A DNA stretch of 60,000 nt from Amphiscolops sp. MND2022 (lineage: Eukaryota): positions 39,682,001 to 39,742,000 of the forward strand of contig OZ076409.1 in the NCBI GenBank assembly GCA_964187785.1, read 5' to 3'. Below the pieces are notes generated by a model. That model saw only the letters and a program-made list of their open reading frames with translations. It did not search any database and was not told where the DNA came from. Positions 3,601 through 33,380 of this stretch are shown here, piece by piece. A program made the position numbers and the translations under genes. Position 1 is the stretch's first letter. Every line of letters starts with the position of its first letter.

Positions 3601-3990
3601 TCGAAAAATGTTTTGAGGTTTCTCTCATTCATTTCCATGATATCATGGATTTCCATGATCTTTTCCAACTGTTATCCTTTGCTAGTCATATTGGCAAGCT
3701 TTTTGAGCGTTTTTTCCCTCTATCAGATATCATGGATCTTCGTCATCAATCAAGTGCCATGTGTATCATCATGTTCGAAGAAGACACACACACCCGTGGT
3801 CTGCAACTAACGTAGGGAACCCCATATAAGCCACTATCCCAGTAACAAAAATACCAACCAACAAACTACTCATACCAGCCACCATCCCAGTCGACTGGTA
3901 GAAGAAGAACAAGAAGAAGAAATCAATGAACCTTCGGGATGTGGCAGTACAAAAGACTTTCTATCATTGATTCCAGAACAAAATAAATAG
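668..3990 (-). mobile_element. Degenerate LINE retrotransposon ORF2 (RT + C-terminal CCHC knuckle), interrupted by a MITE
   Basis: Broken ORFs with RT motifs WRRISLTSHLGKVVERVI, QQVGFQPGKST, YDLEKAFDSV and GLPQGAVLSPLLF; C-terminal CPYCRVVDDTAH; several stops and frameshifts. Confidence 0.85.
746..1573. mobile_element. Non-autonomous TIR DNA transposon (MITE) with 9-bp TSD, Mutator-like
   Basis: Imperfect ~22-bp TIRs gggtggctgtaaataggtcgaa / ttcgaactatttccgcccaccc; TSD gcaataaag at 737-745 and 1574-1582; empty site with a single gcaataaag at 4060-4068 in the sister LINE copy. Confidence 0.9.
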
Positions 3991-5056: not shown

Positions 5057-5063
5057 ATTAATT

Positions 5064-12500: not shown

Positions 12501-12588
12501 CCAGAACTGTACAACGAGAAGACGAGAAGTTGATAAAAACGGAAGTATTACGGATTTAGGGCTCGTTGTAAATAACAATTTGAGATGG
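9570..12588 (+). mobile_element. Degenerate CR1/L2-group LINE: PHD-finger ORF1, APE endonuclease, RT; runs into the assembly gap
   Basis: ORF1 CEKC...VQCSKCVNWFHLACS...WVCESC; ILTETWL endonuclease motif; PPWIT; VIPVFKKG, QYGFRTG, DFQKALD and IPQGSFLG RT motifs; many stops. Confidence 0.85.
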
Positions 12589-12788
12589 NNNNNNNNNNNN
12601 NNNNNNNNNNNNNNNNNNNNNNNNNNNNNNNNNNNNNNNNNNNNNNNNNNNNNNNNNNNNNNNNNNNNNNNNNNNNNNNNNNNNNNNNNNNNNNNNNNNN
12701 NNNNNNNNNNNNNNNNNNNNNNNNNNNNNNNNNNNNNNNNNNNNNNNNNNNNNNNNNNNNNNNNNNNNNNNNNNNNNNNNNNNNNNNN
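12589..12788. other. Assembly gap (200 N)
   Basis: Run of N; the flanks are not necessarily contiguous in the genome. Confidence 0.99.
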
Positions 12789-13143
12789 CGAGGAACCTAT
12801 TTTTTACCATTGAACTTGTGACGTTTGTAAAATTTGAAGTACGTTTTCTTTTACCGCTAATGATCAAGGGGCTTCCGATGAATTTTTTGGTGTGAATTGT
12901 ATTGGAAAATTTATTCCATTCAAATTTTGATTTATGATTACATAGTAATTGAATTCTTCAAACCAAACCTAATTTTTGCGTTACGAAATCTACTTTGGAA
13001 TGGTTTAAAATTAGGTTCAAGCTTTCGTCAGGATTTTAAAATCAAAATTGTTCCAGTGGAAACTTAGTAACAACATTTTAAACTATCACGTACACTAAAA
13101 CCAATGCCACAAAAGTCTAAAAATTTGTCATTCCCTTTCAACG

Positions 13144-15858
13144 TCAATTTTCTTCGTCTGAGTCATCTCCACGATTGTCACTGTTTTCTTTTCTTGGGTC
13201 TTGACTACCGCTGCATCGGCTGCTGGTGTTTCCGGAGCTGCTCCCCGACTGGGTCTCACTGAATTCAGAGCGGGCTACCGGATCTTCATAGTCGAACATT
13301 AACTGCTCGAAGGGATGAATTGTTTTACTTGCTCGGAGGACAACATAACGTTGATTGTTGTCGGCAAATACAATGACATCAGTGGACTTCATATTGGCTT
13401 CTAAAACTGAGTGATTGGCAAGGCGACCCATACATCTACTATCAGGGTGGACAGGACACGTTTCCGCGGAGGCATTGATTATCCTTCGGCCGGGTCCTTT
13501 GACTTCAAGACAAAACTCCCGTTTAACACCTTCAATGGCGGATACTTCGTCCATTGATGTCTTGAGGAAAACCTGCCCGTGGTAATCAATGACGACTTCA
13601 TTTTTCTGGAAAACTCGGGTGGCAACGATTCCTCGTCCAAACTTGCTAAATGAAACTTGCGTGACTCCGGGCCATTTTTGAGATCGACATCTCTCCATAA
13701 GCAAAGTTTGATCTTCAAACTCCATATTGCTTGCCAATCCTTTGTAATAAATCTTCTGAATTGCCTTGTTCGTTTCTACTTTTGGGGTAATAAATATTGG
13801 GAGCACAAGTAGATAAACTTTTCTCAGGTCTTGGTTGCAGTCATTCTGCATCGTCCACTTCTGTCGCTGGAAATAGCTCTTCAGTCTCATTTCCAACGAA
13901 GCAAGGTCAGTTTTTCCATTCATATGCTTGAAAAAAGCATGGGCACGAGCTGATTGGCGGGCATATCTCTGTCGCTCCTGGTGCCTTCTCACCGCCGACT
14001 GCACGACCTGGTAGTCCAAGGCAATGTCCAGAGTCTGCCAAATTGCTCTAGTTTGGACCTTCAACTTAGGGAGTACTGCTTCAGTGTCGTTTGCGATGGG
14101 CAACACAACATGAAGGTGCCGTTCCAATTCCCACAGCGGGCTAGCACAGTGTTTCAGTACCTGTTTAAAACGATACCAACATTGAATTGTGTCTAAATGC
14201 ATTCTGAATTAATGATATCAACAGTGTACGTGTCACAGATAGATCGACCCCTGATTGGTACCAAAAACTAGCAAAACTAGCTCTACAATATAAATTGTCC
14301 CAGTTTCCACGGATTTTCAGTATAATTTGACTTGCTCAAAGAAAGCAATGCGGAAAGCAAGACCATATCTTTAAACACATGGCGTGGAAACCAGATACAA
14401 ATCTTAATACATTGCGAACTTTCACTCAAAGGGGTGTACACATTATTGCGCGTTACCATGAATGTCCTAGATTCCACGGTTTTAAGTTTGAATTGACTTA
14501 CTCAAAGAATGCATTGCGGAAAACAAGACCATATCTTTAAACACATGGCGTGGAAACCAAATACAAATCTTAATACATTGCGAACTTTCACTCAAAGGGG
14601 TATACACATTATTGTGCGTTACCATAAATGTCCTAGTTTGCACGGTTATTGAGTATAAAACGGCTCGCTTTTAAAAGTCTTCGAGAAAAAAAGACCATAT
14701 CTTTGAACACATGGTGAAAATCGAATACAAATCCTAACTCATAGTTCTATTCAAAGGGGTGTGATGATGATTTGTTTATACATACCGACTCCATATATTG
14801 GTCAACAACGTGGCTAGGTCGGAAGTTGGATTTCCCAGCTGAATTCACAAAAAACAATTCGGTGTACAGGATCCGATTGTCTGTCTCACTCAGCAGTCTT
14901 TCGAAAGGAGTCCCCTCACCGTGGTCCAGAAACTCGCTTCGAACACTCACGAAGTAGTCCACAAAGCCTTCCAATAACCATCGTGGGATATTGTAGCACG
15001 TTTTTCTGGCGCACCTCTCCGCTACATCTATCTCAAGCACGGAAGAGGCATTTTGGTCGTCTGATTCTTTCATCTTAACTGCTGCCTGCGCCACGGCGTG
15101 GACAGTCACATTGCTGACCTCCCGATCCAGAAAACCCAAGAATATTAAAACGTAAGCCATTAGACTTCGAAAGAACTCTATTTGGACCTTTTTCGTAGCC
15201 AGAATTCTCTTACTGCAACGCGATACATTCTCTGTTATTGTCCATTTAATGAAAGACTCCACTGTATCGGTTTTGTAATCAGGCTTCTTCTTCTTGGCGG
15301 GAACAGTCTAAAAAATGGAGAGTTTTCAAAAAGTGTCTTTATTGTATTTAAAACTGATAACGCATCCTCCAGGAATTAAAAAGTAAATTGGTTTCTATGA
15401 AACGTAACCCTTAATTGGAACGCAAAATTTGAACAATATGTATTCAGAAGTTTTACTATACTTACCATATCAACTGGTGGGGGCATTGGACGTTTGTTTG
15501 CTACATTATCGGAGCTTGGATGTCCATTGGACGGTTTTGGAGGAATTATGATCTCAGCTGGTAATTCGCTCTGATTGTTTAAAAGCTCGTTTATGACCTC
15601 TTCAGCTTCAGTCGGGAGATGTTCCGTTATTATTCCATCCTCATTGAAGCTGAATTCAGGTGGCTCTTGGAGGCGGAACGGAGTGCTGTTGAGTGGCCCG
15701 CCGGGTGTTTGGCTAAACATCACGGGCGATACCAGGGGCGTGAACAAACCAGAAGGAGTTTGCATTTGGGTTAATGTCAGAGGCGTAGACATGTCCGCGG
15801 AAGACGGTGTTGGAATTGGGGGCATCGACAAAGGCAGCGAGGTTTTATTTTGTTCCAT
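13144..15858 (-). CDS. Spliced ~643-aa protein: Pro/Ser-rich N-terminus + tyrosine-recombinase-like domain + SETD8/PR-Set7-like SET methyltransferase
   Basis: Phase-0 exons 15858-15466 (ATG|gtaagt), 15307-14786 (tttag|ACT, TCG|gtatgt), 14160-13144 (aaacag|GTA). SET motifs GRGIVATRVF, VIDYHG, GRLANHS, EQLMFDY. YR-like segments RSLMAYVLIFLGFLDREVSNVTV, LLEGFVDYFVSVR, LFFVNSAGK, TRAIWQT and RHQERQRY. Confidence 0.8.
14290..14760 (+). repeat. 166-bp repeat array 1 (~2.5-3 units) in intron 2 of the SET gene
   Basis: gacttgctcaaaga.. recurs at 14329 and 14495; same unit at 18950, 22980 and 25390. Confidence 0.9.
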
Positions 15859-16156
15859 TTAGGAAAGTTAGATTTTCTATTTTGACGGTCTGATTTTCAG
15901 AGACGATTTCAAGATAATGATTGTAGATTTCGAATATTTGTTTATATGAATTACGATAATATCTGATATTTAGTAATTAGTAGTGCCATATCCGGCTGTG
16001 CGACCGAAAACCTCAATCTTAAATGAGGCATGTAAAAAGCGTTATTTCGGAATGAGTCTAGTGTCTTCATTTCCAATTATTCCTAATAGTGCACCTGCTT
16101 CGTAATTAGGTGACGATTAGCTGTAATTAATTTGGGATGCAACCAATCTCGTTAGC

Positions 16157-16476
16157 GTCTTCTTTAACGCTCATCCCATCAACATTCATCACATAAAAAG
16201 TCTACATATTCTATTAGTTTCGAGCTTTAAAATAAAGTCTTCTTTAACGCTCATCCCATCAACATTCACCACATAAGGGGTTTACACATTCTATTAGTTT
16301 CGAGCTTTAAAATAAAGTCTTCTTTAACGCTCATCCCATCAATATTCACCACATAAGGGGTCTACATGTTTTATTAGTTTCGAGCTTTCAAATAAAGTCT
16401 TCTTTAACGCTCATCCCATCAACATTCACCACATAAGGTGTCTACACATTCTATTAGTTTCGAGCTTTAAAATAAA
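16157..16476 (+). repeat. 4 x 80-bp tandem repeat ending at the start codon (copy 1)
   Basis: gtcttctttaacgctcatccc... at 16157, 16237, 16317 and 16397; ATG at 16478. Confidence 0.95.
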
Positions 16477-16477
16477 A

Positions 16478-16849
16478 ATGCTTCTCCAAACCTTCTATGA
16501 AAATGAAGTTGTGCAAATCTTGGATCCTGCGACATCAATTTGGGAATCAGCGAAAATAATTTCCTTTGTGAGCGATTGGTGTGTAAGAATTAAATGGGTC
16601 GATTGGTCTTACAATAAAAAAGAAGATATCACTGTTCCCGAAGTATACAGACCTGACAAAAATTACTGGAATATTAGAAAATCCCACAATCTTGTCCGCG
16701 AAGAAACTGTGAGCAACAAAAGACGGTCAACACCTCTTAGCTACAACGCTCGTCGACTGGTCAGAAACGATCAAATTTACTTTTGGCAACCACAATGTAA
16801 CTGTGTAGATAGGAATGAGGCTAGTGTCTTCATTTCCAATTATTCCTAA
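16478..16849 (+). pseudogene. Truncated duplicate of the Tudor-like gene (N-terminal domain only, 123 aa)
   Basis: Near-identical to the first ~110 aa of the 17241 ORF, then reads into the duplicated promoter and stops. Confidence 0.75.
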
Positions 16850-16919
16850 TAGTGCACCTGCTTCGTAATTAGGTGACGATTAGCTGTAATTAATTTGGGA
16901 TGCAACCAATCTCGTTAGC

Positions 16920-17239
16920 GTCTTCTTTAACGCTCATCCCATCAACATTCATCACATAAAAGGTCTACATATTCTATTAGTTTCGAGCTTTAAAATAAAG
17001 TCTTCTTTAACGCTCATCCCATCAACATTCACCACATAGGGGGTTTACACATTCTATTAGTTTCGAGCTTTAAAATAAAGTCTTCTTTAACGCTCATCCC
17101 ATCAATATTCACCACATAAGGGGTCTACATGTTTTATTTGTTTCGAGTTTTCAAATAAAGTCTTCTTTAACGCTCATCCCATCAACATTCACCACATAAG
17201 GTGTCTACACATTCTATTAGTTTCGAGCTTTAAAATAAA
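16920..17239 (+). repeat. 4 x 80-bp tandem repeat (copy 2)
   Basis: Same units as 16157-16476, shifted by 763 bp. Confidence 0.95.
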
Positions 17240-17240
17240 A

Positions 17241-18679
17241 ATGCTTCTCCAAACCTTCTATGAAAATGAAGTTGTGCAAATCTTGGATCCTGCGACATCA
17301 ATTTGGGAATCAGCGAAAATAATTTCCTTTGTGAGCGATTGGTGTGTAAGAATTAAATGGGTCGATTGGTCTTACAATAAAAAAGAAGATATCACTGTTC
17401 CCGAAGTATACAGACCTGACAAAAATTACTGGAATATTAGAAAATCCCACAATCTTGTCCGCGAAGAAACTGTGAGCAACAAAAGACGGTCAACACCTCT
17501 TAGCTACAACGCTCGTCGACTGGTCAGAAACGATCAAATTTACTTTTGGCAACCAGAATGTAACTGTGTAGATAGCGAAAGATGCCAAGAGGACCGTTGC
17601 TGCGGGTCAGTTGTGATGGGTTGGGTAAAAATTAATGACCCTTTCTGTCAACAATGTTTGATAACCGACGTCGAGGACAATGATGAGTATGTTTCGTATC
17701 GCCAACTAAGAAATAAACCTTGTGTAAGAGACACTGAACCAGAAATTGATGAAACTGAACAAGATCATGAATCAGGATCTGACGTACATCGCCCATTCGT
17801 CAAAAAGCAAGCCCGTGTGACAAGCGCCACCCAACCGATGCCACAAGTCGACATTCTTTCCTTGCTTCCCAGTGTTGACGATGACGTTGAATTAACATAT
17901 GCACCCTGTGAAAATGATATCATAAAGGTAATGTTTTCTTGCTTTTTTGCTTACAAACTTTGCTTTTGAATTTTGATAACCCTGGATTGGCACCAAATTT
18001 TTCAAAGTATTTTTCCCACCAAATATTTGTTCAATCTTTTTATTTTCAGGTGGGATCTATTGCATCTTACGCAAATGATGATTTTGAAATCAAGAAGATT
18101 TACTATGATCATCAGAAGAGAAAAGCATGTGCATTCATGCAGAGCAGAAGTGACCCTGACATTGAAGTGCGCATCCCGACAATTCGTGTTGTCACAACAA
18201 CATCTTCTAAAGGCGATGTAATGGATTTTAATTCGCTTCTGGAGCCCATGGACCAAGCCTATGCTTTGTTTTCTGCAATAAAACGAATGGTGGGACTCTC
18301 AAGAAAGAAGCATTCCTTAACCGCAACATTAGTTCCCTGTACCCCACTGACAAAAAAACTCTGTGGCTTCGAAACTGGCAATCTCAAAGAGGCCGTTAAG
18401 TATAGTGTTGCAAACCAAGAGGGACATAAATGGTGCAACGGTACATGGGATACTGTACTTGGAAGAAATTGGGATATGATCCCATGTCACGCAAGCGATG
18501 GAGAAGATGTTCTTATAAAGACAATGAGGTTCATTGAACATCGAGAATTTGGCATGTTCACGATTCGTGTCCAGTTTTTGTCAAGCCAAGGCCACTACAA
18601 AAACAGCCAATATAGAGATCTGTTCGAAATGTACCTGTCTCAGATGCATGAAATACTCTTAAATACTCCTAAATTTTAA
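17241..18679 (+). CDS. Spliced ~438-aa protein with an N-terminal Tudor/chromo-barrel-like domain and an unknown C-terminal domain
   Basis: Exons 17241-17927 (AAG|gtaatg) and 18050-18679 (ttttcag|GTG), phase 0. FYENEVVQILDPATSIWESAKIISFVSDWCVRIKWVDW has the spacing and aromatic residues of Royal-family barrels; Cys-rich middle region. Confidence 0.7.
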
Positions 18680-18949
18680 AAAAACTTTCTATTCGTGTTT
18701 GATCATTTTTTGTTTCTTCAACAATTTATCTTTCATCATTATTAGTAATTATTACAATATAAGCTCCATGACCTTGTATTCTTGAAAATTCTTGAGAAAA
18801 GTCTTAGACTATCGAATTACTTTATTCTGAAATGTAATGCACTTGTCACATATAGATCAACCCCTGATTGGTACCAAAAATGATACAATCTCAACAATTT
18901 CCGGGATTTTATTTGCATGTTTTCCAACTTTTTTCAGGATATTTGATTT

Positions 18950-19365
18950 GCACCAAAAAGCAATGCGGAAAACAAGGACACATCCTAAAAAACATGGCAT
19001 GAAATCAAAACACAAATCGTAATGCATTGCTCAATTCTGTTCGTCTCGGTTTCCACGGATTTTCAGTAAAATTTGACTTGCTCGAAGAATGCAATGCGGA
19101 AGTCAAGACCATATCTTTAAACACATGCCGTGGAAACCAAATACAAACCTTAATACATTGCGAACTTTCACTCAAAGGGGTATGTATGTATGCAGACACC
19201 GGATTGCGCATTACCATAAATGTCCTGGTTTCCACGGTATTTAAGTGAAAATTGACTTGCTCAAAGAAAGCAATGCGGAAAACAAGGACATATCTTTAAA
19301 CGCATGGCGTGGAAACCAAACACAAGTCCTAATACGTTGCTCAATTTCATTCGAAGGGGCGTAGT
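18950..19365 (+). repeat. 166-bp repeat array 2 (diverged), between the Tudor-like gene and the transposase
   Basis: caatgcggaaaacaaggac...gtggaaacc...cattgcgaactttcactcaaagggg units. Confidence 0.85.
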
Positions 19366-19762
19366 CATGGTTTTCAGAAAATAATCAAACAATTTTTGTT
19401 TTTCTTTTTTTATTACCTTTTGAGTATTTCCAATCAGATAACGCTTTACCAAGATGAAACAAACAGTCCTGAGAAGTGAAAACTTCTAATTACGAGTGAT
19501 AAGACTTAATGGAAGACTCTTTTGCATCTGATTGTGATTATTGACAAAATGGCCTTGGGTGATATGGACTCAAATTATTAAAGTATAATTGAACCGTAAT
19601 TCATCAGTTTAATGAAGAGACTCAAAACCGGACTCATTTCACTTGTGGGTTTGTGTATCTAATTGCATTTCATTTTATTGTATGGTGAGGGTTGCAGTCT
19701 GACAAATGTTCTACAATCTATACAATTTCACTTTGCAATAAACCTAAAAACCAGCTTTAGAA

Positions 19763-22700
19763 ATGACTCCACTGTCAATGTGGGAAAGAAATATTATCGA
19801 AGCGGAAAATGGGAAATTCTTCGCTAACTGTCGACTTTTTGACGATATATCCGGAAAAGAAATACCGAATAAGTTTCGGAAGTTCGAGACACTTGTTGGG
19901 GAAATGTTGACTGGGACAAATTTAAATTCAAAAGAATTCATTCGAAGAATTGCTGTTAAAGGCCAGAAAACCCCCCCTGTATTTGTAGCAGCAAAATTGG
20001 CAAAACTACTTGTACTGCGTGGATTTAAAGACTTCCCTTGGAACTCAGCCAGAAGAGAGTTTGTCAGTTTGTTTTTCAATAATGATGTCATACCATATAA
20101 CAATCCTTACATGAAAGACACCCTTGTGACACCTGCAGATGCGACTCCTGAAGATTCGGCCCCTGAAGGTCAAGTCAGTGACAATTCTCTCTCAAAAGAA
20201 AGAAAGCTAGAAATATCAGACGCCAAAAAAGTCAAACATGAACAAACTGATCCAATTAGAACAGATCTGATGTCAGAAGTTGGGTTCAACAGTTTCATGA
20301 AAAAAATCAAAAGCTCTGCAAATAAGAGAAAAGATCAACGATTCACAAAAAAGAGGACCCAAACTTAGTCAAAAAAATTGTAGAAGATCTTTTCGAAAAA
20401 AGAGGATCTACTGATGAGTTCAGGCACCATTTATCTCTTGTCACGAAAACGGGTAACACGGAAGATGTTATAAAAGTTATTCGAACAAGACTTTCAATTG
20501 TTGGACTCGGATACAATTTAGTCCCATGCATTCGATTGGTCAAGAAGTCAACATCCGAAATTCAGTCCTACTTTACAGCAATGTGTGAGCCAGAAAGAAC
20601 CTTTTCTGGTTTTCGCTGCAACCTGATAAAATGCGTGGAGACGGTGTCATACTTCTTGTTTGGAACGAAAGAACTCAATGGCCAACGAGTTGATATCTGG
20701 GGAGATGGTTGTGAAATTGGAGGTGTCGAAACAACACGAATTGCATTCCGGATCCTTACTGACAAAATGAAGTGTCAATCATCCGATGCAGTATTCTGTT
20801 TTGCTGCATACAGGGGTAAAGATAGTAGATTCGCAATGGAGCAAAACCTTGGGCCAACTATAGCTGGAGTTCAAGAGTCTGGTTGGCTTTTTATGAAGAC
20901 CCTGGAACTATCAAAACGCGGAGTTAATTTAACATACAGTGGCGATTCGCCGTTTTTAATGAGATTGGTGCTCGGAATCACAAATGAATCAGCTAGCCCA
21001 TCGAAAATGCCACTCTATATAACAGAACTTGATTACACACCAACAAAATGTCATCATGAAACTGGTCTACGATCTGATGTTATTATACCCTTCAGAACGG
21101 ATCTTCCAAAATCTTCCTTGGTCTTCTACGAAAATATACAATCAGTTTGTCCTGATGCCACGCATATGACCACCCGTTGTGTTGAAAATGACCTCCAAAG
21201 AATTGCACAGAAAATTATCAGAGAAAAGCATCCTAATCATGATGTAGCAATTCGCCAGCTTGAAGAAAACTTGACAAGAAGAGATGCGAGACCATACTTT
21301 CAGTTCAACATATCTCATAGAAGTGGTTCGTGTATCGGTACTGTAGGTGCAGTATCCCTCTCAGGTGGTAGTGCTCTAGCGGTCATTGCTGATAAAGAGG
21401 AGCTTGCAGGTGCAAAAGACGGTAAAATTAGCGATCTTTACCATGGTGTTTGGGGTCCCGAAGATATCATTGTTGGCAGTGAAGAAAACGCAAATGTCCC
21501 TTGCGTTAACATCCTAAGAAACTGGTTTCCTAAACTTTTCAATAAAAATAACCCCAAGCAAAAAGAGTCCAATGACAAATTCATATCTGCTTTTGATGCT
21601 TGCGAACTCCTGCGATCGTGTTTAAACCAATGTGTTTTATGTCTGCGAGCAGAAGAATTCAACAGTGAAACGTTCAAAAAATGGGCTGAAGTTTATTACC
21701 AAACCAATATCTTGATATTCGGGCATGCCGGTTTGACACCTTATAAATTGAAAATGCTGATGTTTCCTCAACTTGTTGAGAGTGGATATATAAAGATATA
21801 AGACCATTTGATCATTTGTGTGAAGGTCTTGAAAAATCGAACCACCAAGCTAATCGTGGCTTTCAGACAAAGACAATGCGCGGAGAAGGTAAGATCTATC
21901 ACAAGGATCCACTATTCCTCGAGTCGTCCTTTTCTTTCTTGAAATTTTTAAGATTCGCAGTTGAAGTTGAAGACAAAGGCTCGGACGCTGAACCAACTTC
22001 TAAGATTATCATGGAACCTGAACAAGACGCAACAACAGAGGTCTACTTTGATGACCATAATATGACTGGAAACAGAAAGATCTATCAGACAGTTTCGAAC
22101 AGTACCACAAACAGCGTAATGAGTATACTTCATAGTGCAACAAAAGTGATGGGCATTGACGTTCCGGGACCTGAGTACCTTGATATTTGCCGCATAGAAC
22201 CACCGTTAACAACTATCGCCATTGGATGTCAAGAAAATCCTTTAAGTGGATTAAGATTTTGTCTGCTTGGTCGCTTGGGTACTTGGAAAAAACATACTCT
22301 AACACATGACATGGTGAAACAATTGATCATCAATATGGGAGGAACTGTTCTAGAAAATGAACGAGCTGACGTGTTGATGAGCACCCATTCACAGCTCCCC
22401 AATTGTTTTGTTCTCGTCAAGGACGAAAAAGACTTAATCTTAGGTACCGGTTCCACAGAGGAAATTAATGACATGAAGAAATCAAGGAAAAGAGGGTCAT
22501 CAGTAACACGGGAGGGTGGAAATGAACCATCACAATATTCCAAAATAGCAAAACGATTCGCAGCTGGGGGTTTCAAATTCTTGAATATCGAATTTTTATC
22601 TGAAGTTGACGAGAAAAAAATGCTGATTGACCCGGAGCCATACATTCTTCAGCCCGGATCCAAACTTGTTGAAAATCGTGTCAACGACAAAGACCTTTGT

Positions 22701-22841
22701 TCTTGGACCAATGCAGTGGAAAAACACTGGGTGAAGGTGTATCTGCGATTGTCGCTCTCAAGAGATACCGTGATGGCACTTTTAAACAACTTTCGTTTTG
22801 ATTTACTGTTCTCTTCTAATTCATATGTTACCCGAACTTGA
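19763..22841 (+). CDS. RAG1/Transib-like DDE transposase with C-terminal BRCT domain (~1000 aa; frameshifted in this assembly)
   Basis: Ordered RAG1-core-like motifs: IWGDG (D1), QSSDAVFCFAAYRGKDS, SGDSPFLMRLVLG (D2), CPDATH, LTPYKLK, CEGLEKSNH (E). BRCT-like PLSGLRFCLLG...VKQLIINMGGTV. Frames join at the A6 run 20347-20352 and at ~21795-21800; possible third shift at 22689-22691. Confidence 0.75.
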
Positions 22842-22979
22842 AACTATTCAATAAATTCTTCAAAAATAAGTATTTTCATTAGGTTTATTAAGATGCTCCT
22901 ACGAAACTAGTTTTACATATCATAGATTGGTGCCAAAAAGCACACAATATTGGGCTCCGTTTCGGCAAACTTTCGTTTG

Positions 22980-23365
22980 TCTTGGTTTCCACAAATTGAA
23001 TGCGCATTACCACAAATGTCCTAGTTTCCACGGTTTCAAGTTTGAATTGACTTACTCAAAGAATGCAATGCGGAAAACAAGACCATATCTTTAAACACAT
23101 GGCGTGGAAACCAAATACAAATCTTAATACATTGCGAACTTTCACTCAAAGGGGTATACACATCATTGCGCGTTACCATGAATGTCCTAGTTTCCACAGT
23201 TTTAAGTTTGAATTGACTTACTCAAAGAATGCAATGCGGAAAACAAGACCATATCTTTAAACACACGGCGTGGAAACCAAATACAAATCTTAATACATTG
23301 CGAACTTTCTTTCAAAGGGGTATACACATTATTGCGCGTTACCATAAATGTCCTGGTTTCCATTG
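22980..23365 (+). repeat. 166-bp repeat array 3, between the convergent transposase and JmjC genes
   Basis: Two near-complete units starting ~23049 and ~23215. Confidence 0.9.
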
Positions 23366-23617
23366 AGTTTTTACCTAGCGGAAATTCACTGTTGAGGTAT
23401 ACTCCTGATTTTTCTCCTATTATTCTTGCATAATCTTGGAAATTATTGCATTAGACGTCCAAACGTTTCAAAGCATGTTTTGAATAATTGAGAATTTTTC
23501 AATTCGTTTTCCAATTAAACTTCTTGCGCTCGTCACTGAATAAAACAGATTGTAAGGTATTTGGCAGTTTTGTCATTTATTTGTATGATACTGAAAATCT
23601 AAATCTGAATCTACAGT

Positions 23618-26600
23618 TTAATCTAAATCTAAAATATCTAGTTCAAGGGGGATTGAGCGGATTCCCGTAATGGCAGCAACAAGAGGACAGCGTTTTGGGT
23701 GCAAAGATGGATCTACCATCTTTGCCGGCAAGAGAGTTCTTCCCTTGCCTTTAACATGGGTAACCATCATTGCAGGTTTTGACTCGAGTTCTAGTAGATC
23801 CGTTGTCGTCATTACTTCCTCGTAGCTTTTCGTGTAGGGGTCAACAGCGATGGGCACATGCTCTGGAACAGTAAGAGCCTTACTGGGGTCAGTATTCTTC
23901 TCGGGATGCTCTCTCAAATAACTGCGGCTGCTGCTTGGTGGCTCACGCAGTGTCACTGAAGCTCTTTTTTGGCCCAGTACGATGTGAAGTCTTTCAGGAC
24001 TGAAATCGGGTAGCACCTGTAAAACGTAAAAATCAAACTTTAAACCTGGAGAGCAAACTTTCAATTGAAAAATCCGAAATATTTTTGGTATAGTTCTTGT
24101 TTATTGACTTAGAAGCACAAAATTTCACTCAGTTGTGTTTTACTTGCATGTATATCAGTCAGACATGAATGTAGAGGATGATCAATTGAAAAAAGCAAGA
24201 CTTGTTCATAAACATAAGTTTTTGAATTAGAAAATGACCCTCGATTGGAACCAAAATGGAAATGATTGAAAATGGAAAATTGAAGTTTTGTGACCAAACA
24301 AGAGTGAAGGCTTAACAATCTTACTTCACGGGCGGCGTGTTCATTGTATAGTGATTGCACTGTGCTGTACATCGACACCAGGCGTCGACAGAGTCGAGGG
24401 CACAGCTTTTCGGCAATACGGTACATCAGAAGTACCAACATCTCTGGAAGATCAGGGAACTTGTCATCGGATCTTCTCGGGAACTCGACGATGATTGAGT
24501 GTCTTATCATGGGCAGGTGCCCGAACGCCAGGAAGTTCGTTCCCAACGAAATGGCATTGCCTTTCGTAAGTACAAAGTGGAGGAAATTTGCGGGCATGAC
24601 TAGAACATCTCCAGCTGTGACATGCAACCGCAAACATCCCTCTTCCAGCTGGTCGATGTTCCCGAAGAATGTTGGCCTGAAAATAAAAGTACATCGAAGT
24701 TGCTTTTCTAATTTTTTGACATCAATAGAAGTAAACTAGAAAAAAGTTTAAATATTTGAAAAGAGACGTTAAATGCTTGCTTGTTGTTTTCCATCACCAA
24801 AAAATGTTAGTCAAAAAGTATAATTGTTTGTTTTTGAAAATAGAACAGTGTTCTTGAAGACAATAAAGTTGGTGTATTAGTTAAGTTTTGTTACTTACGT
24901 AGTGTCGTTCTCAGCATTCGACCATCTTTCAAAATTACTGAGGTTTTTCTTCGACGGTTTCACCAAGAAGAAAATCTTCTCTCCAGTTAGAACTGTGTAA
25001 AACACAGACGTCGAAGAATAATCCTGATGCCACGTCGTGTGCGCAGAATCTTGAGTGACCAGGACATAATAGGGAGTAGAACAAGAGTAATGCTCGGTTC
25101 TCGACTTCCCGATCTCCCTGTCGGCCAAATGGTTGATGGAGTTGTCAGCCACCATCTTGGGTACTGAGTATATGGCCTTGGGGAGTGTCCTGACATCGAT
25201 GACGTTTAGAGGGTAATACCGACTGCCTGGATGACAGTTGGCCAGCTCCACGAAAAACTCGTCATACGCGTGTCTGCAAAAAAACATCTATTAAATGATG
25301 CTAGGCAAGGTTCTAATTCATGTTATCAACAGTATACTTGTCACAGGTAGATCGGACCTGGATTGGTACCAAAACGAACTCGACATAACTGTCCCAGTTT
25401 CCACGGATTTTCAGTATAATTTGACTTGCTCAAAGAAAGCATTGCGGAAAGCAAGACCATATCTTTAAACACATGGCGTGGAAACCACATACAAATCCTA
25501 ATACATTGCGAACTTTCACTCAAAGGGGTATACACATTATTGCGCGTTACCATGAATGTCCTAGATTCCACGGTTTTAAGTTTGAATTGACTTACTCAAA
25601 GAATGCAATGCGGAAAACAAGACCATATCTTTAAACACATGGCGTGGAAACCAAATACAAATCTTAATACATTGCGAACTTTCACTCAAAGGGGTATACA
25701 CATCATTGCGCGTTACCAGGAATGTCCTAGTTTCCACGGTTTTAAGTTTGAATTGACTTACTCAAAGAATGCAATGCGGAAAACAAGACCATATCTTTAA
25801 ACACACGGCGTGGAAACCAGATACAAATCCTAATACATTGCAGAACCTCACTTGAAGGGGTATACCCATGGTTTGTGTTTTGGAACAACTAAATTCGGTT
25901 TTACTAAATGCTAAACATGGTTCAAACGAGTAAAAAGTGTTTTTTACCTCTCCGATTCTGGCTGACTTGACTTCAATTGGAGCATCAGGTTCAGCAAGGT
26001 TGACCGGTCGCAGAAGCCGTTTGATCTCCGCGACAAAGCCTTTTTTTCGCGGAGAATTTTGGGATTTTCAGTCCTGTGCAATGCTTGGCTCCATTTCTCC
26101 AAATCAAGGGGACACCATGTCGAAGAAAGTGACCAAGGTGTTCGGTTTGATTGTCATGGGGACCCTGCCACTCAGCGTAGGAAAATTGACATTCCAGAGG
26201 CACGTTTTCGCAAAATGCGAAGTGCTCTTGGGTGCCAAATGGGGCCGCTGGAGTCCCAGAATTGAATGTCAAATCAAGTGGCATCGGTGGTTGGGCAATT
26301 TGACATTTGACTGATCTCGCAATGTGGTTCCTTAGGCTGTAGCCGTACCCGAATGAGGTCCCACACGAAATGCAGAAATGACGGCTTCTTTTTTTTCCTC
26401 TCGCAGCTTCTGTAATTTCAAAGACAATTTATCAAATGAATGTCCAAAATTTTTTCTCATGAATTTCATTCATGGTATGACCCATGATTGGAACCAAAAA
26501 TCTTCCAAGATTTCATGAATGCTTTCATAGTATGACCCATGATTGGAACCAAAAATCTTCCAAAGATTTTATGAATGCTTTCATGGTATGACCCATGATT

Positions 26601-28030
26601 GGAACCAAAATCCTTCCCGAAAATTTGTGTTTTTAGACCTTCCCTTTCACATCAGAAAAACATTGCCCTTCTTTTTCTATTGCATACGGTAATCGGTTCA
26701 AGACCGTAAAATATTTCAAAACAAGAAAAAAAATTCTGGAAACAATCTTAACACTAACGGTATTGGTACATCCTGACTTCTTCTCCAGCAGCAATCTTTT
26801 CTTGTTGCTTCGTGCAATATTTGGCTCTTCTTTGATGGCGCTCTTTACTTTTTTTGGTCGTGAAAATCTGACCACATTTCTCGCACGTCAAATTCTGGGC
26901 AACTTGTTCCTGCTTGCTGACACTTTTGCATCCGGGAAGATGACGGGTTAAGTGCCATTTTCTTCCAGCAACGTAGTCGCAATTCGAACACGGGAAACCT
27001 AAACATAGCCTTTTGAATTATACGAGATGAAGAAGTCAAATAAAAAACCAACCTATACATACAATATACATACCAAAATCAGATTGTTTTCCACGAGTTA
27101 CAAAAATGATAGGTTTCATTTAGATTGCTCGAAACTTTGAAAAATGGTAGACATGATATATTGATCCACGTGATGTTTGATTTGTCAAACTATTTATCAT
27201 TTCAATTTCAATATCAAAAAATGGAGATTGTCGCTTGTCAATTGGAATTGTCAAAACGAGTACAAGAACGAGTAAATGGAAGTCTTACGTTTTTTAGGTG
27301 GCGGAGTTGTATCTCGAAATTCGTCACAGAGTTGTCGTTTTCGGTTTTCTGGCAAACCAGGGCAAGTGCGGGCATGAACAGCAAGGGCTTCTCGAGTGGG
27401 GGCATAATGGTCGCAAGCACCGATTGTGCAGAGATGACCTGAGTAATGAAACAACGATGAAAATATATACAAAAAATGTGAATATATTCAAAAATTATTT
27501 TTTGAACACCGCTGTTCATACAGCCTCAAAATTTCAATACAAATAAATCCAAATAAAGTAAAGAAACGTTCATCAAAACTTCAAACATTTTTCATCTTCG
27601 CAGTTGAATTTACCCGTTTCAGCAGTTTGATAGTTTTTGACCTTTTTCACTGATAGTCAAGAAAAAGTAACGCAGGAATTAACGACTTACCAAGGAACAG
27701 TTCTGATGATGAGTCAGATGAGTCCATGCGGGATCTAAAGTTCTGCGAAGTGCTGGGTCCGCTGGGTCCGGGGGCTTGCTCAGAAGTACTTTGCTCAGAA
27801 GCAGCTGTTTTCTTCGATTTCGGCTGTAACAACTTGAAAATGTGAATAAAAGGTCCAAAATATCAAGTGCAAATAACATGAAATTTAAATTAGTTCAAAT
27901 AACGAAGACAAAATTGTTTACGAGAAAGTTTGGATCTTTCCGTCTCATCCCCCCATCGATTTAAGTCCCCCAGTTATTATTAAATAAAAGTTTTATAAAT
28001 TACCTTTAAAAAAATATTAAAGTATCTCAT
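23618..28030 (-). CDS. Spliced ~716-aa protein: four C2HC zinc fingers + KDM2/KDM7-type JmjC histone demethylase domain
   Basis: Phase-compatible GT-AG exons: 28030-28004 (tentative), 27823-27691, 27438-27289, 26998-26759, 26409-25948 (one extra base in T7 run 26041-26047), 25287-24899, 24676-24325, 24016-23618. JmjC motifs TTWHQDYSSTSVFYTVLTGEKIFFLV and AGDVLVMPANFLHFVLT..SLGTNFL with intact H-x-D...H. Fingers CTIGAC..HARTC, CSNC..HLPGC, CEKC..HQRRAKYC, CISC..HIARSVKC. Confidence 0.85.
25390..25870 (+). repeat. 166-bp repeat array 4 (~3 units) in a JmjC gene intron
   Basis: Unit starts at 25423, 25589 and 25755 (exact 166-bp period). Confidence 0.92.
26465..26620 (+). repeat. 3 x ~55-bp tandem repeat in a JmjC gene intron
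   Basis: tcatggtatgacccatgattggaaccaaaa-type units with GATTGG at 26486, 26541 and 26597. Confidence 0.9.
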
Positions 28031-28394
28031 TAAACATACAATTTTTTTGGAAAAGAATCTGCGTAAAACAATTTGAAAGTTATCAGGACACTGTTTGAAA
28101 AACTGCCCTAAACTTTGAACCAGAATCTGCTTCTCAATTGTAAAATCAATTACAGTAGGGGGCTTTTATAACGACCCAAAGGGGCAGTTGATTTTAAACT
28201 GATAATTTCCTGATAAAATCCAAAAACAGTTTCTTGGAATTTGGGATTAAAATTGAAACAAGTAGAAGCCAAGACGCAATGAATAGCTAACTTTAATTTC
28301 GACGCTCTGAATACTTTTGTTTATTCCAATCTTGGAACCAATCTTTGAAAAAAATCCATAAGCAAAATCAATACAAAGACACTTTAGTGAATTC

Positions 28395-28556
28395 CCAAAT
28401 AACATAAGAGCAAATATCATAAAACGAAATTAGTTTCAAATGACAAAAATGAAATGAGTTTGACATTATAAAATAAAATTGTTTACGAGAAAGTTTCATT
28501 TTCATGTTATTTGAACCTAATTTTGTTTTTATGCTATTTGCTCTTATGTTATTTGG
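28395..28556. repeat. ~160-bp imperfect palindrome (foldback/MITE-like)
   Basis: ccaaataacataagagcaaata...aaatgaaa pairs with tttcattttc...tatttgctcttatgttatttgg; partial relative at ~27856-27930. Confidence 0.8.
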
Positions 28557-28822
28557 TACCTAATCGACAATTTTTCAACCAAAAATTTATTTCCGAAAAC
28601 GAAAAAATCAATTTACCATTATGATTGGCTTCGGGTTATATCCGTTGATTGGCTGAGGGTAGTATCGGCTGCTGGATGTCTGCAAAACTTTGAGTTGTTG
28701 AGAGAATCAAAGAGAGATTCAATGGGAGATTCTGGCTTGTTAATCAGTTAACAGTCCGAACGGTGAGAAAACAAGTTTGACAATGAAAACTGCCGGTCAG
28801 TTAGCAATCGGTCAGTTGCTGT

Positions 28823-28988
28823 GATACGCGCCGCTGATACGAGCCGCTGATTAGCCAATAGGAATCACCCACAGTTGGAACAGTCATCAGTTTGGTACGA
28901 GTTGCTGATACGCGCCGCTGATTAGCAAGGAAATTACTCACGATTGTAACAGTAATGATTTTGATACGAGCCGCTGATACGCGACGCT
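28823..28988 (+). repeat. Five copies of a GC-rich 13-mer gatacg(c/a)g(c/a)cgct
   Basis: Copies at 28823, 28836, 28907, 28963 and 28976. Confidence 0.85.
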
Positions 28989-29854
28989 GGTGAGCTTTCA
29001 AGCGATGACCGATAAGGCAATAACAATCATATCTGTTCTAATATTGTTGACAAGCAATAAGTTTAAAAGCAAATAGAAAGCAGTTTCTCGATGACCGTGT
29101 AAATTCGAGAATGTTCTAGAAAATATTCGAAAAAAAATATTCGAATACGAAAAATCTTAATCTTTTGCTGTTTATTCTTCGCCTCGAATCTTGATAAAAT
29201 TCAGTACGAATTTGGCCTCTAAACCTGAAGCATAATACATCATTGGTTGCTTTCATTTTCACGCCCGAAACGATCAATAGAAACCGAAAATCTATAGTTA
29301 ACGATTTCAAATATCGTTCAAATAGATATCATTTTGATTAATTTTGCTCAGATTCGACCCATGATTGGAACCAAAATCTCCCCATTTCTCCACTCTAATT
29401 ATTCAAATAAATTTTTCATTTTCCAGTATAATTTATTTCAGTATAAATGTAGTATTTCACTCTTGTGTATCACTATAGTATAAAAATATTCCAGTATAGT
29501 ATAGTGAACATTATAGTTAAGTATAGTACAAGTAACCTGAATCTTTTCAATTGCATTCTAATTGACTATTTTAATCAAATTTTTATTTTTATTTATCTAA
29601 GCAGCTTTACGATTCGACCCACGATTGGAACCAAAATCCCCCGAATTCCACGAAGATTTTAAAATTTCATTAAAATAATTTATTCCAGTTGGTATAAATG
29701 TATTTCACTTTTGTATATCACTATGTACAATCAGTATAAGTATTTTGCACTTTGGTAAAGTGTTGAAAGAAATTTTCCTTTTTCGTTTTTTTTAAAATTC
29801 ATTTTCAAATTTCATTTTTTCAAATTCAAATGCAGTCTGTATAATTGTAGTACG

Positions 29855-29881
29855 ATAGTATAGTAGTATAGTATAGTATAG
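29855..29881 (+). repeat. (tagta)n microsatellite
   Basis: atagtatagtagtatagtatagtatag. Confidence 0.7.
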
Positions 29882-30270
29882 ATGAAAGGAAGAGAAGCCG
29901 ACAGTTTTACGGAAAGAGAGACATTGATTTTCACTTGTTTGTGGAAATTGACTTTGTATTTACTCTCCGGCTTATTAAATTTGATTTCAGCTAATTAAAA
30001 TGTAAGTGGAAAGTAAGACGCTGAAATTTGCAGCCATCTGATTGGTTGTAATGCACTTTGTGGAATCCAAGACACGAATTTGGCGGCATCTTGTCGGCAT
30101 TTGTCGGCATATTTTTGGTCCCAGTTTCCGCAAAATGAAACCGGCTAACGTATTAACCCATGCCCTCGGATTCCGAAAAACACCGATTTTCGTGGCGTGG
30201 ATTCCGCAAAATCAGTGCTAAATTGCCAATTTTGCACGCTTTAAGACATGTCTGCGGAATCGGAGGGCCT

Positions 30271-33200
30271 ACACGCACAGAAATGTGTCTGTAGCGATTT
30301 AGCTTGCAGATGCACAGTAATGCGAGGTCTTGGAATGGACAGAACAAAGACTGTCACAGATGTTGGCAGTCAAAGAGCAACAGCACAACCAGAAGTGAAA
30401 TTCGCCTCATCGAAGCCGTCGATCACTCTCAGTGCAGACGCGAATCGGTTACCGCCTGCGTTTGGAGGAATGCAGAGTGGTGCATTGCAAGTACCACAAC
30501 TTGCGAACACACAAAAACAGTATTTGCCCAGTCAAGGACCAAACTTTTCCTCAAATGCAAAAGATGACTACTACATCAGATCTAGCTTGCCAAAACTGAA
30601 GTTGGCAGATTTCTCAGGTGACCCAATGGAGTGGCCAGAGTGGTCACAACTATTCCAAGCAACCGTCCATGCAGCGAACATTGACGACAGTGTAAAAATG
30701 AATCACCTGAAAACAATGGTCACGGGCAAGGCGAAAGAGGCTATTGCTGGTCTAGGGTACACTGCTGAGATGTACAATCTGGCGTGGAAAGTTCTAGTTC
30801 GATACTTTGGAAAACCTCAAATGGTTGTGAACGTCCAGTTGAAGCGAATCTATTCCTTCCCTCCGATGAAACCTTACGATGGAACCACATTGATCAAGTT
30901 TGCGAGAATAGTGTCGAGTTGCGTGAAAGTTTTGACACAATTCAACTACGTGGGAGACCTAAACTTAAAAGGAGTTCTGGGCAGTGCCACAAGGAAGTTA
31001 ACACTGGACATGAAAACGAAGTGGCTCACTTATGTCAAGCAAATGAACCTGTATCAACCGGGACTCGCTGTGTTCAGTGAATGGCTAAATGATATAGCGG
31101 ATATTCAGGATGAATTGCTTTTGTATTCGAATCCAAAAGCTGATCGCGCGAAGACGAGCTACAAGGAAAAGGCCGAAGGCTCTACGTTTGCAACATCAGC
31201 AACAAACAGGGCAAATGACAACTCGAAAAACCAGAGAGAGTGTGTGTTGAAAGACGGCAAACACCCAATTTGGAAATGCGAAAAGTTCAAAAAAATGAAC
31301 GTCGAAGAAAGAGGACAAAAGGCGAAAGAACTGAAGTCGTGCTTCAAATGCTTGTCAGATGCACATCAGATGAGAACTTGCTCTGGTAGACTCTGTGACG
31401 TCAATGGTTGTGGAAAACCCCATCACAGATTGCTACACAGACCTTACAACGTGGAACAAAAGAAAAGCGTTGAAAATGTCGACGAGGTTTCAAACCTGTC
31501 CTCAATGAGAAGCAGTGGCGTGCTTCCCGTCATTCCAGTAACGATAGGGAGTGGGCGCAAAACTCTGAAAACGTTCGCTTTGTGCGACTCAGGAGCAAGC
31601 CTGTCCTTTGTGGACGAGAGCCTGATGATAACGCTAAATCTGATGGGACAGCCAGTGGATATGAACGTTGCAGGGATTCATGAAACGTCAGATATTAGTA
31701 GTAAACGACTTCGAGTCAAGATTGGAGATCACGACGGAAAGGTCAAAGAAGATAATATGGCATATAGTCATCCCAACGTGATTGCAGGAAATCGAACGTA
31801 CAACTTCAAGAAATTGAAAAGAAACATATCCTCACCTGTCAGTTTTGAAAGACTCAACCATCAACCTGAAAGATGTCAAAGTCATCTTAGGCCAAGATTG
31901 TTATCATCTGCATAGAGCAACTGACTATAGAAAGTGTGGAAACGCAAAGCCGTGGGCAGTGCGAACCAAGCTGGGATGGATGCTCAGTGGACCCTTGCCT
32001 CAACAAGAAAGTGCGAAACTCGCAACTGAAAAGTTGTTCGCAGCAGAACTGGACTCATTAGCGGGGCAAATGGAAACCCAGTAGACCATGGGATTGTATG
32101 CCCTGAACTGCAGTGTATCCGGGAGGTTGGAGGCAAATAAGAAGAGCTCACGGGACATTTTCGTAGTAGAACGCAACTGGCAGGAAGTCAACACTAAAAC
32201 CCTCCTCGTAGAAATCAAGCAAGTCTGGCAAGAAGAAATGCAACTTGTTGCAAGTGATCATAATATTGTCAAACAAGAAAAGAACAAGGAGTTTTCACTT
32301 ACAGAAGAAAAGAACGAACATGAACGTGTCGCAATTACATCAAACTTTCGAACCTCGGAAAAATTTTGTGTAACGCTTGACTTGCTGAAATAGAGTATAG
32401 GTGTCGCATCTGTAAAACAGCTTGTCAAAGAAAAGTATTCAACGCAATTGCAAGCAACGAATGTTACTGTCAACACTCTAACACTTTAAGAAGTAAAAAG
32501 GTGTTCTCAATTGGAGAGAGATATTGAATTCGTGAATAAGAGCCAAATTGAACTTCATGAAGTCCCAAGAGGCAAAGCGATAAATCGAAGACCCTTTGGT
32601 GGTTTGTTGAAGCCAGACCAACCGACTGAAGAAAACGCGAGTAATGAAAGAAAAGCCTTAAATGTGTCACTTGGGAGAAAACATGACGTTGGCTTGAATG
32701 AAAAACTGCTGGACAAAATCATTCCAAACGACAGGGTAAATTGTAACAATTGGTTAGGTAATGGAAATTCGGGAATGGATGCAGTGGCACAAGCTAATGC
32801 GTATACCCAACTGAGAAATAGCCATCCCAAGCAATTCGAGAAACGAGCTTGGAAATTTGAACATAGCTCACACCTATTAGATGAAATGGACGAAGGGGAT
32901 CCGCTGAATCAAGATGGCATACTAGAAGCAAAAAATTCGACAGATGAATTTGCAGGCGAAATATCACTGATGGAAACGCCAATGGGTTCTTCAAAAGCCC
33001 GAACAACAACAGGCTGTAAAATTGGACCTTGCATAGGGCCGGCTGTATCATGGGAAGAAATGATGTTGCAACTTCAATTCTTTGGAAAATGCAATTAAGA
33101 GGAAATTAGACAACTTGAAGTCAATGATTTGGTTTGGATAGTGGATGAGAATGTGAAAAGAGCGCACTACAAGATGAGTAGAGTGTTGGAAGTCTATCAT

Positions 33201-33380
33201 GGAGGTGATGGGCGAGTGAGATCAGTGCTGGTGAAAACTGAAGATGGAAAACTCAAAAGACCAGTAGTGAAACTGGCACCCATGTTCTACGAAAGTGTTT
33301 TTCGGGAGAAAAACAGGGCCGGCAATGTTGGCGCCATACAATTGCGAGATCAGAAACTCGAATTTGAACGTGACTGATGA
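30271..33380 (+). mobile_element. Internally deleted, 5'-truncated Bel/Pao LTR retrotransposon (gag, protease, pol C-terminus; RT/RNaseH/integrase core missing)
   Basis: LPKLKLADFSGDPMEWPEW gag; Pao Cys-His cluster C..KHPIWKC..CFKCLSDAH..C..CDVNGCGKPHHRLLH; ALCDSGAS protease; WAVRTKLGW; GGDGRVRSVLVKT..LKRPVVKLAP; purine-rich tract then TGTTGG (probable 3' LTR start) at 33326. Confidence 0.85.

Follow-up and report, generated by a model that had tools for sequence, protein, structure and literature searches.

Do four neighbouring genes, one for a transposase and three for putative chromatin proteins, belong together as a single transposon? The question is raised by a stretch of 60,000 nucleotides (nt) from the genome of Amphiscolops sp. 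MND2022 (GenBank assembly GCA_964187785.1, contig OZ076409.1, positions 39,682,001 to 39,742,000 of the forward strand). This whole stretch is called the window below, and coordinates are window positions unless a chromosome handle precedes them. The source assembly comprises 1.07 Gb, and the window has ~40% GC and is rich in retroelement remains. Stop-to-stop open reading frames (ORFs), Pfam and PDB sequence searches place in it a SET gene (minus strand), a Tudor-like gene (plus), a transposase (plus) and a C2H2 zinc-finger/JmjC gene (minus). An earlier note on this DNA had claimed the same four genes in the same order and orientation, and had proposed that they form a single mobile unit, 17 kb or longer, with chromatin-modifying cargo. 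Two findings confirm that proposal. Other copies have the same boundaries, terminal inverted repeats (TIRs) and target site duplications (TSDs), and the four genes stay linked across subfamilies. There is very little room for doubt that this is a mobile unit with cargo under selection.

The intact element is 17,832 bp long. Copies on different chromosomes (C2, C13, C11 and C5) have 99.91-99.94% mutual identity across 17.8 kb, and the similarity among them breaks off sharply at the same two bases. The ends of intact copies, 5'-CATTACAGTGCATCTGCAAGCT ... AGCTTGCAGATGCACTGTAATG-3', form a perfect 22-bp TIR. The TIR starts with 5'-CATTACAGTG, and the termini are CA..TG. The search for further copies and the alignment of their flanks, both recommended by the earlier note, defined these termini and a TSD of 2 bp. 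Ends and TSDs were determined in copies of the main subfamily, with flanks fetched for six copies, and the 2-bp TSD is present in 5/5 copies having both flanks (TC, TC, TA, GT and TG). The TIR 22-mer, with two or fewer mismatches, occurs 1,182 times in the genome (581 forward and 601 reverse); its reversed control has no occurrence on either strand. Many TIRs face each other in plus/minus pairs at distances of just 0.18-8.5 kb, a pattern expected of deletion derivatives.

Genome searches with each of the four proteins list scored candidates only (87 of 1,258 in the transposase search). Among these scored candidates there are at least 87 matches to the transposase, 120 to the SET protein, 151 to the JmjC protein and 136 to the Tudor-like protein. 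At least eight of the listed transposase matches have an open frame of 1,017 codons. The unit moves by cut-and-paste and has moved very recently in this animal genome; the family is probably autonomous and may be active to this day. The alternative of a Maverick or virus-like element was rejected, as a Pfam scan of the element ORFs gave no capsid, polymerase or integrase.

The linkage of the four genes was tabulated by hand from 32 transposase rows of at least 93% identity. These rows represent 30 loci, because two pairs are within-locus tandem duplications. On the expected side and strand, the SET gene is found at no fewer than 28 of the loci, the Tudor-like gene at 29 and the JmjC gene at 28, and all four genes occur together at 26 or more. 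The same order, strands and spacing recur at 14 or more loci of a subfamily with ~80% transposase identity. A copy of another subfamily, at ~62% transposase identity in the genome search (the ~62% subfamily), whose full-length transposase is 51% identical to that of the main subfamily, has kept the SET and Tudor-like genes beside the transposase. Protein-database matches to the SET, Tudor-like and transposase proteins have their longest-contig sizes in common, a hint of linkage in other assemblies. As a side observation, the head-to-head SET/Tudor-like pair of the ~62% subfamily copy (C5:16422001-16438000, read in reverse) has been flipped as one cassette with respect to the transposase.

The introns and spacers of the element carry repeats of their own, as the first description of the locus had stated. 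Arrays of a ~166-nt unit are located inside a SET intron (14207..14758), between the Tudor-like gene and the transposase (18820..19360), between the transposase and the JmjC gene (23013..23478) and inside a JmjC intron (25315..25861), and nowhere else in the window. Each array opens with a common ~35-nt leader that is GTCACAGATAGATCGACCCCTGATTGGTACCAAAA-like. The genome matches to the 166-nt unit that are listed (40 of 787 candidates scored) all adjoin SET genes of element copies. The ~62% subfamily copy has related units as well. In addition, a subterminal 17-mer, GACCCACGATTGGAACC, is found twice near each end, 0.66-0.97 kb in (at ~661-677 and ~876-892 from the left and at ~687-703 and ~953-969 from the right of the intact element). 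The 166-nt units and the 17-mer are candidate binding sites for the zinc fingers or the transposase.

The transposase and its relatives

The transposase of the window copy is a pseudogene (19763..22841, plus strand) that is split over three frames by frameshifting indels. Compared with an intact copy, it has changes of -1 at ~20347, +5 at ~21795 and -1 at ~22689. Intact copies have a single frame of 1,017 codons, which encodes 1,012 amino acids from the first ATG. The frame breaks are the result of decay and are not introns; the intact copies keep one open frame.

Pfam detected no core family in the transposase, nor in sets of 19 and 22 relatives; only a BRCT domain was found. The Pfam RAG1 family (PF12940) has no match in the genome, but it has none in any control genome either and is thus uninformative. 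The transposase family is large: in a set of 1.84 billion proteins, 583 representative clusters match it at E<=1e-3. In a protein-language-model atlas the core is nearest to RAG1 clusters (0.93, with 152-162 shared features), which we treat as a lead only. The nearest unnamed clusters of the core in this atlas are mainly cnidarian.

The family assignment rests on predicted structure, since no sequence method reaches RAG1. An AlphaFold model built from a 30-sequence alignment has a mean predicted local distance difference test (pLDDT) score of 78.5 and a predicted template-modelling score (pTM) of 0.71, with most of the core above 85 pLDDT. Foldseek against the PDB gave 42 matches at E<=1e-3, all of which are RAG1, HzTransib or BbRAGL (best E-values 6.5e-7, 9.6e-5 and 2.2e-4, respectively). 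The next family after these is the hAT transposase Hermes, at 4e-3 and a template-modelling (TM) score of 0.26. VIA-align superposes model residues 254-739 on RAG1 residues 483-1008 with a Z of 18.5 and a root-mean-square deviation (rmsd) of 3.6 Å over 381 residues; the Z is 16.2 for HzTransib and 15.9 for BbRAGL. Judged from this model, the protein is very probably a RAG1/Transib-fold transposase. The RAG1/Transib-type call of the earlier note is correct at the level of the fold. The core spans residues 231-741 of the intact protein, which we mapped by hand to approximately 20455..21995 (plus strand) of the window.

A catalytic triad of D311, D395 and either E687 or E690 may be proposed from the secondary structure and conservation. 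The candidate triad positions are each conserved in 23/24 to 29/29 sequences. Between D395 and E687 the 30-sequence alignment has conserved Cys or His columns only at C463 (21/30), H468 (30/30) and H684 (28/30), and H694 (29/29) sits just beyond E687. The resulting pattern is C463-x4-H468 and H684-x9-H694.

C-terminal to the core, residues 821-966 (approximately 22228..22670 of the window, plus strand) match the BRCT domains of 53BP1, MDC1 and BRCA1 in VIA-align with Z of 11-11.7 (11.7 for 53BP1 and MDC1). Pfam gives a weak BRCT match in the ORF of the window copy and scores above the cut-off in the relatives P0132 and P0177.

Transib and RAGL (ProtoRAG) elements are like this element in the predicted fold of the transposase core, in cut-and-paste transposition with TIRs and in the heptamer TACAGTG, which lies inside the TIR. 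They are unlike it in several respects. The transposase has no detectable sequence similarity to theirs, conserves neither a C(2)C nor an H(3-4)H motif and has an added BRCT domain, and the element is 17.8 kb in length with three chromatin genes. The TSD is 2 bp, whereas that of canonical Transib is 5 bp. The terminus, 5'-CATTACAGTG, has the heptamer from base 4 and no CAC..TG start resembling that of a recombination signal sequence. No RAG2-like or kelch gene was recognized by Pfam on any element ORF, with the C-terminal half of the Tudor-like protein unmodelled.

Relatives of Transib with 3-bp and TA TSDs are reported in a 2026 preprint (10.64898/2026.08.26.747230). The clade of CACTA, Mirage, Chapaev, Transib and relatives (CMCT), as delimited in a 2025 paper (PMC12730594), is defined by CA..TG termini, TSDs of 2-5 bp and the motifs C(2)C and H(3-4)H. 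Measured against that definition, the element is alike in its 5'-CA..TG-3' termini, in a TSD within the 2-5-bp range and in a RAG1-related transposase, and is unlike in that the zinc-ligand motifs given there as common to all members are not conserved in the element family. Given the CA..TG termini and the 2-bp TSD, the absence of the zinc motifs and a TSD that is not 5 bp, we place the element as a RAG1/Transib-fold family in or beside the CMCT clade, and not as a canonical Transib.

The SET, JmjC and Tudor-like genes

The SET gene (13144..15858, minus strand) consists of ORF blocks at 15376-15858, 14747-15307 and 13144-14208. A candidate intron is at 15308-15465 (minus strand), and the second intron holds the repeat array described above. 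The catalytic domain (13288..13638, minus strand) contains the motifs GRG, NHS and FDYEDP and is recognized as PF00856 (1.5e-10; 41.8 bits versus a cut-off of 22.4). These motifs, as GRG, NH[SC] and FDYEDP, are conserved across three subfamilies. Among solved structures, KMT5A/SETD8 chains come closest (2e-5; 4.9e-6 with the family profile), followed by MLL1 at about 5e-3 (6.7e-3 with the profile).

The C2H2-zinc-finger/JmjC gene (23618..27487, minus strand) has six ORF blocks, namely 27251-27487, 26754-27017 (with the C2H2 fingers), 25991-26428, 24895-25287 (with HxD and the Lys), 24109-24735 (with the second His) and 23618-24100. The HxD exon matches PHF8, KDM7, PHF2 and KDM2A in the PDB sequence search at 6e-11 to 2e-5. 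On a single exon the Pfam JmjC score is 14.3, below the cut-off of 24, a weak JmjC/cupin match. The HQD, K and H residues are conserved across two subfamilies. Like KDM2 and KDM7, the protein thus has the HxD..H iron ligands and the 2-oxoglutarate lysine of JmjC enzymes. KDM7/PHF8 proteins carry an N-terminal PHD finger, and KDM2 carries CXXC and F-box modules. The upstream exons of the element gene differ from both in that they encode C2H2 zinc fingers (PF00096, 2.1e-6) instead of PHD or CXXC/F-box modules. The SET and JmjC identifications of the earlier note were right by Pfam and PDB sequence searches; the C2H2 fingers of the JmjC gene and the BRCT domain of the transposase had been missed.

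The Tudor-like gene (17241..18679, plus strand) has two exons, 17241-17927 and 18050-18679. Its intron (17928-18049, plus strand) is a phase 0, GT..AG intron of 122 nt. This intron is confirmed, because an ORF of the ~80% subfamily (L041 680-1699) runs straight across the junction (..NDIIK|VGSIASY..). The intron was gained or lost within the transposon lineage, between the main and the ~80% subfamilies, and gene models deposited for the main subfamily treat it as coding and run into a stop codon. A barrel that matches Tudor domains is located at approximately 17496..17739 (plus strand; mapped by hand from the alignment), equivalent to residues 84-164. In VIA-align, the matches of this barrel are Royal-family domains, Tudors among them: the Tudor domain of MTF2 at Z 7.8 (rmsd 1.3 over 51 residues), LBR at 7.6, PHF19 at 7.4, TDRD3 at 7.2 and the 53BP1 tandem Tudor at 6.5. 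Independently of this, Foldseek ranks the PHF1, MTF2 and PHF19 Tudors first (PHF1 with E 1.4e-2 and TM 0.70-0.78). These matches are supportive of at least one Tudor-like barrel in this protein, but are not conclusive. Of the Tudor-like call in the earlier note, one barrel of ~80 residues that matches Tudors stands, on a model of low confidence.

The earlier note had also reported consistent splice phases for three genes. In-frame GT..AG introns can be drawn for the SET, Tudor-like and JmjC genes. Selection was estimated from six exon segments, 920 codons in all, of the main and the ~80% subfamilies. The proportion of non-synonymous differences (pN) is 0.13-0.22 and that of synonymous differences (pS) is 0.62-0.78, with synonymous sites near saturation. 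Four segments allow dS to be computed, and their ratio of non-synonymous to synonymous substitution rates (dN/dS) is 0.107-0.158. The cargo is under purifying selection.

Possible roles of the cargo

The element carries chromatin enzymes beside its transposase, and thus it may edit chromatin for its own benefit. Taken as a whole, we consider it likely that this is a transposon with a RAG1-fold transposase and with selected chromatin cargo, for which counter-silencing is the leading proposal. As for counter-silencing being the main role of the cargo, this is a tentative suggestion from sequence, which we put first among the roles considered without calling it probable. The mechanism could be as follows. 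The 1,012-residue DDE transposase would act on the 22-bp TIRs and leave 2-bp TSDs; solved RAG1-type DDE relatives cut by nick and hairpin. The SET writer, the Tudor-like reader and the JmjC eraser would edit and read histone-lysine methylation on the element's own copies, and the edited chromatin would keep these copies expressible and mobile. The zinc fingers might direct the demethylase to the element's DNA, and the BRCT domain might connect the transposase with DNA-break signalling. The enzyme activities, their substrates, the targeting and the benefit to the element are what we infer here.

Cargo genes that act on chromatin have been described in other transposons. Phytophthora HarbingerS and MuDR families encode a SET methyltransferase (Repbase Reports 2014, as cited in PMC12730594). 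Like them, the element is a DNA transposon carrying a SET histone methyltransferase gene; they belong to another superfamily and host kingdom and have one cargo gene versus a writer, a reader-like protein and an eraser here. The same source describes fungal DNA transposons that encode TET/JBP dioxygenases, some of them in the CMCT clade, for which an escape from silencing was proposed (PMC12730594). These also carry an eraser of a repressive epigenetic mark. As described there, they differ in that they are fungal, have a single enzyme and act on DNA 5-methylcytosine, not on histone lysines. A survey of fusions between transposable elements and chromatin domains in eukaryotes, including cnidarians, reports that transposable elements recruit reader and modifier domains (10.1101/2021.11.30.470311). 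That survey scored single fused gene models, and the separate chromatin genes of the element would escape such a screen. In the literature searched, which did not include Repbase, Repbase Reports or Dfam, we found no TIR transposon with a JmjC gene, none with the four-gene set and no RAG1-like transposase with a BRCT domain.

Two further readings grant the cargo a function other than counter-silencing. The cargo could choose or prepare target sites and tether the transposase to methyl-marked chromatin, with no protection of resident copies. Tethering to chromatin by a methyl mark is known from chromodomain integrases and from the PHD finger of RAG2, and RAG1, whose fold the transposase is predicted to share, works with a chromatin-reading partner. 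The closest matches of the Tudor-like barrel are Polycomb-like Tudors, which bind histone H3 trimethylated at lysine 36 (H3K36me3), and in the main and ~80% subfamilies the Tudor-like gene immediately precedes the transposase, with both on one strand. Against this, the Tudor-like gene of the ~62% subfamily faces away from the transposase, and no common target is seen in the five TSDs or their flanks. A reader alone would also suffice for tethering, which leaves a selected writer and eraser unexplained. We regard this reading as unlikely. Alternatively, the cargo and the BRCT domain could tune methylation of lysine 20 of histone H4 (H4K20) and phospho-dependent signalling at excision and insertion sites, and so steer repair (e.g., copy-back from the sister chromatid). 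SET8 writes H4K20me1 and PHF8 removes it, and the nearest solved relatives of the two enzymes are KMT5A/SET8 and PHF8/KDM7. The likeness of the transposase BRCT to those of 53BP1, MDC1 and BRCA1 (Z 11-11.7) and the presence of the 53BP1 tandem Tudor among the barrel matches (Z 6.5) fit as well. These similarities are distant (about 2e-5 for SET), KDM7/KDM2 relatives also act on other lysines, the best Tudor matches are H3K36me3 readers and not 53BP1, and BRCT folds are generic, so that a role in repair, which is read from likeness in sequence and structure, seems improbable to us.

The remaining two readings deny that the cargo serves the element at all. DNA transposons are known to take up host fragments, and the cargo could be host gene fragments of this kind, passively captured (Pack-type) and functionless. 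Such capture is disfavoured by the dN/dS of 0.11-0.16 at saturated synonymous sites, by catalytic motifs that are intact in three subfamilies and by complete open frames of the cargo genes in many copies. Moreover, the SET and Tudor-like genes are kept where the full-length transposase is only ~51% identical, and we consider capture very improbable. That the locus is not one element, and is instead a host gene cluster or a chance nesting of unrelated repeats, might be suggested by the window copy, which lies amid retroelement debris without a left end. This is excluded by the 17.8-kb units on different chromosomes, which are identical, end at the same two bases and have TIRs and TSDs. Gene order and spacing also argue against it, as they recur in 26/30 close loci and, within the ~80% subfamily, in 14 loci. 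The chance of it is next to nil.

Several points weigh against a counter-silencing transposon with a RAG1-fold enzyme, and some of them concern the cargo. The results do not separate counter-silencing from other uses of the cargo. The substrates of the SET and JmjC proteins are assigned from weak similarity (about 2e-5 and about 6e-11, respectively), and the cargo gene models and their splicing are predictions from the DNA sequence. The Tudor-like protein has no Pfam or PDB sequence match, and 13 relatives of it have no Pfam match. Its AlphaFold model is poor (mean pLDDT 36.5, with 50-73 for barrel residues 84-164), and the barrel matches are all below Z 8 and above E 1e-3. Other points concern the transposase and the element. 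The link to RAG1 was undetected by a PDB sequence search and by PDB profiles of 19 and 30 sequences, and the 30-sequence transposase alignment has no conserved C-x2-C or H-x3-4-H pair. The TSD sample is five copies. The linkage figures have to be read as minima, and nothing follows from an absence in the tables of scored candidates. In the ~62% subfamily copy, no JmjC gene was found within 5.8 kb downstream, where there is a retroelement integrase. The demethylase is thus not universal.

If counter-silencing is nonetheless the role of the cargo, and if the encoded proteins do what their sequences imply, this would be an animal mobile element with its own histone methyl-writer, reader and eraser. 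Transposon counter-defence, with DNA demethylation (the fungal TET/JBP elements) and lone SET genes as precedents, would then include a full histone-methylation toolkit. With readers and modifiers of chromatin next to its RAG1-fold transposase, the element would also be a natural system for studying how RAG cleavage became coupled to histone marks. In a bolder version, which we think quite unlikely, the SET8-like writer, the Tudor reader and the zinc-finger-guided PHF8-like eraser would form a complete methyl-lysine circuit. Together with the BRCT domain, this circuit would set the chromatin at element copies and breaks, possibly via H4K20, control both silencing and repair choice, and thereby parallel the RAG1-RAG2(PHD) coupling in a free-living form. 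Two practical consequences are nearer at hand. The 17.8-kb copies, 99.9% identical and with ~14 kb of non-transposase sequence, are possibly a competent cut-and-paste tool for large cargo. Annotation is affected too, because SET, JmjC and Tudor-like gene models of this genome and of related ones, in numbers from dozens to hundreds, are transposon cargo and would inflate the counts of host chromatin genes.

The window copy and its surroundings

The window holds a decayed, 5'-truncated copy of the transposon (12894..30322, plus strand), pieces of which are 92-97% identical to intact copies. Its homology to intact copies starts at 12894, which is element base 1456, just to the right of an assembly gap of 200 N (12589..12788). 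The left ~1.45 kb of the element, including the left TIR, is thus missing from the assembly here, and no left TIR is present in the window. The right TIR (30301..30322, minus strand) has one mismatch to the 22-mer. By analogy with intact copies, the CG at 30323..30324 is the right-hand copy of the expected 2-bp TSD, the left partner of which was lost in the gap. The earlier note had placed the element at 12789 to 30270. The right end is in fact at 30322, and no true left end remains; both the truncation and the broken state of the transposase had gone unnoticed.

This copy also has a 763-bp tandem duplication (16049..17574, plus strand) that doubles the start of the Tudor-like gene and is not in the intact copy to which it was compared. 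Internal tandem duplications in which the transposase region is doubled are found at C10:43706362-43720164 and C12:5981464-5997481. At the latter locus the Tudor-like gene is doubled too. Both loci resemble the window copy with its duplication.

The sequence to the right of the element is the gag region (DUF1759) of a BEL/Pao retrotransposon, a high-copy repeat. BEL/Pao long terminal repeat (LTR) retrotransposons are located at 30323-37000 (plus strand) and 47853-54019 (minus strand), with a DUF1759 gag, a Pao peptidase and an integrase zinc domain. The transposon insertion point is just upstream of the gag of the first of these. The second has direct repeats of ~185 nt at 47853-48037 and 53835-54019 that are 96% identical. 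To the left of the gap, a reverse-transcriptase fragment like that of a long interspersed nuclear element (RVT_1, 1.3e-4) occupies 11104-12588 and runs into the gap. Farther left, the interval 38-5724 is an unclassified repeat that includes a 279-residue ORF without a Pfam match (1847-2686, minus strand). It is a block of direct repeats of ~2.5-3.6 kb (e.g., 1574-1873 and 4060-4359, 95% identical) with inverted arms of 93-167 nt (1233-1399 and 5558-5724, 93% complementary).

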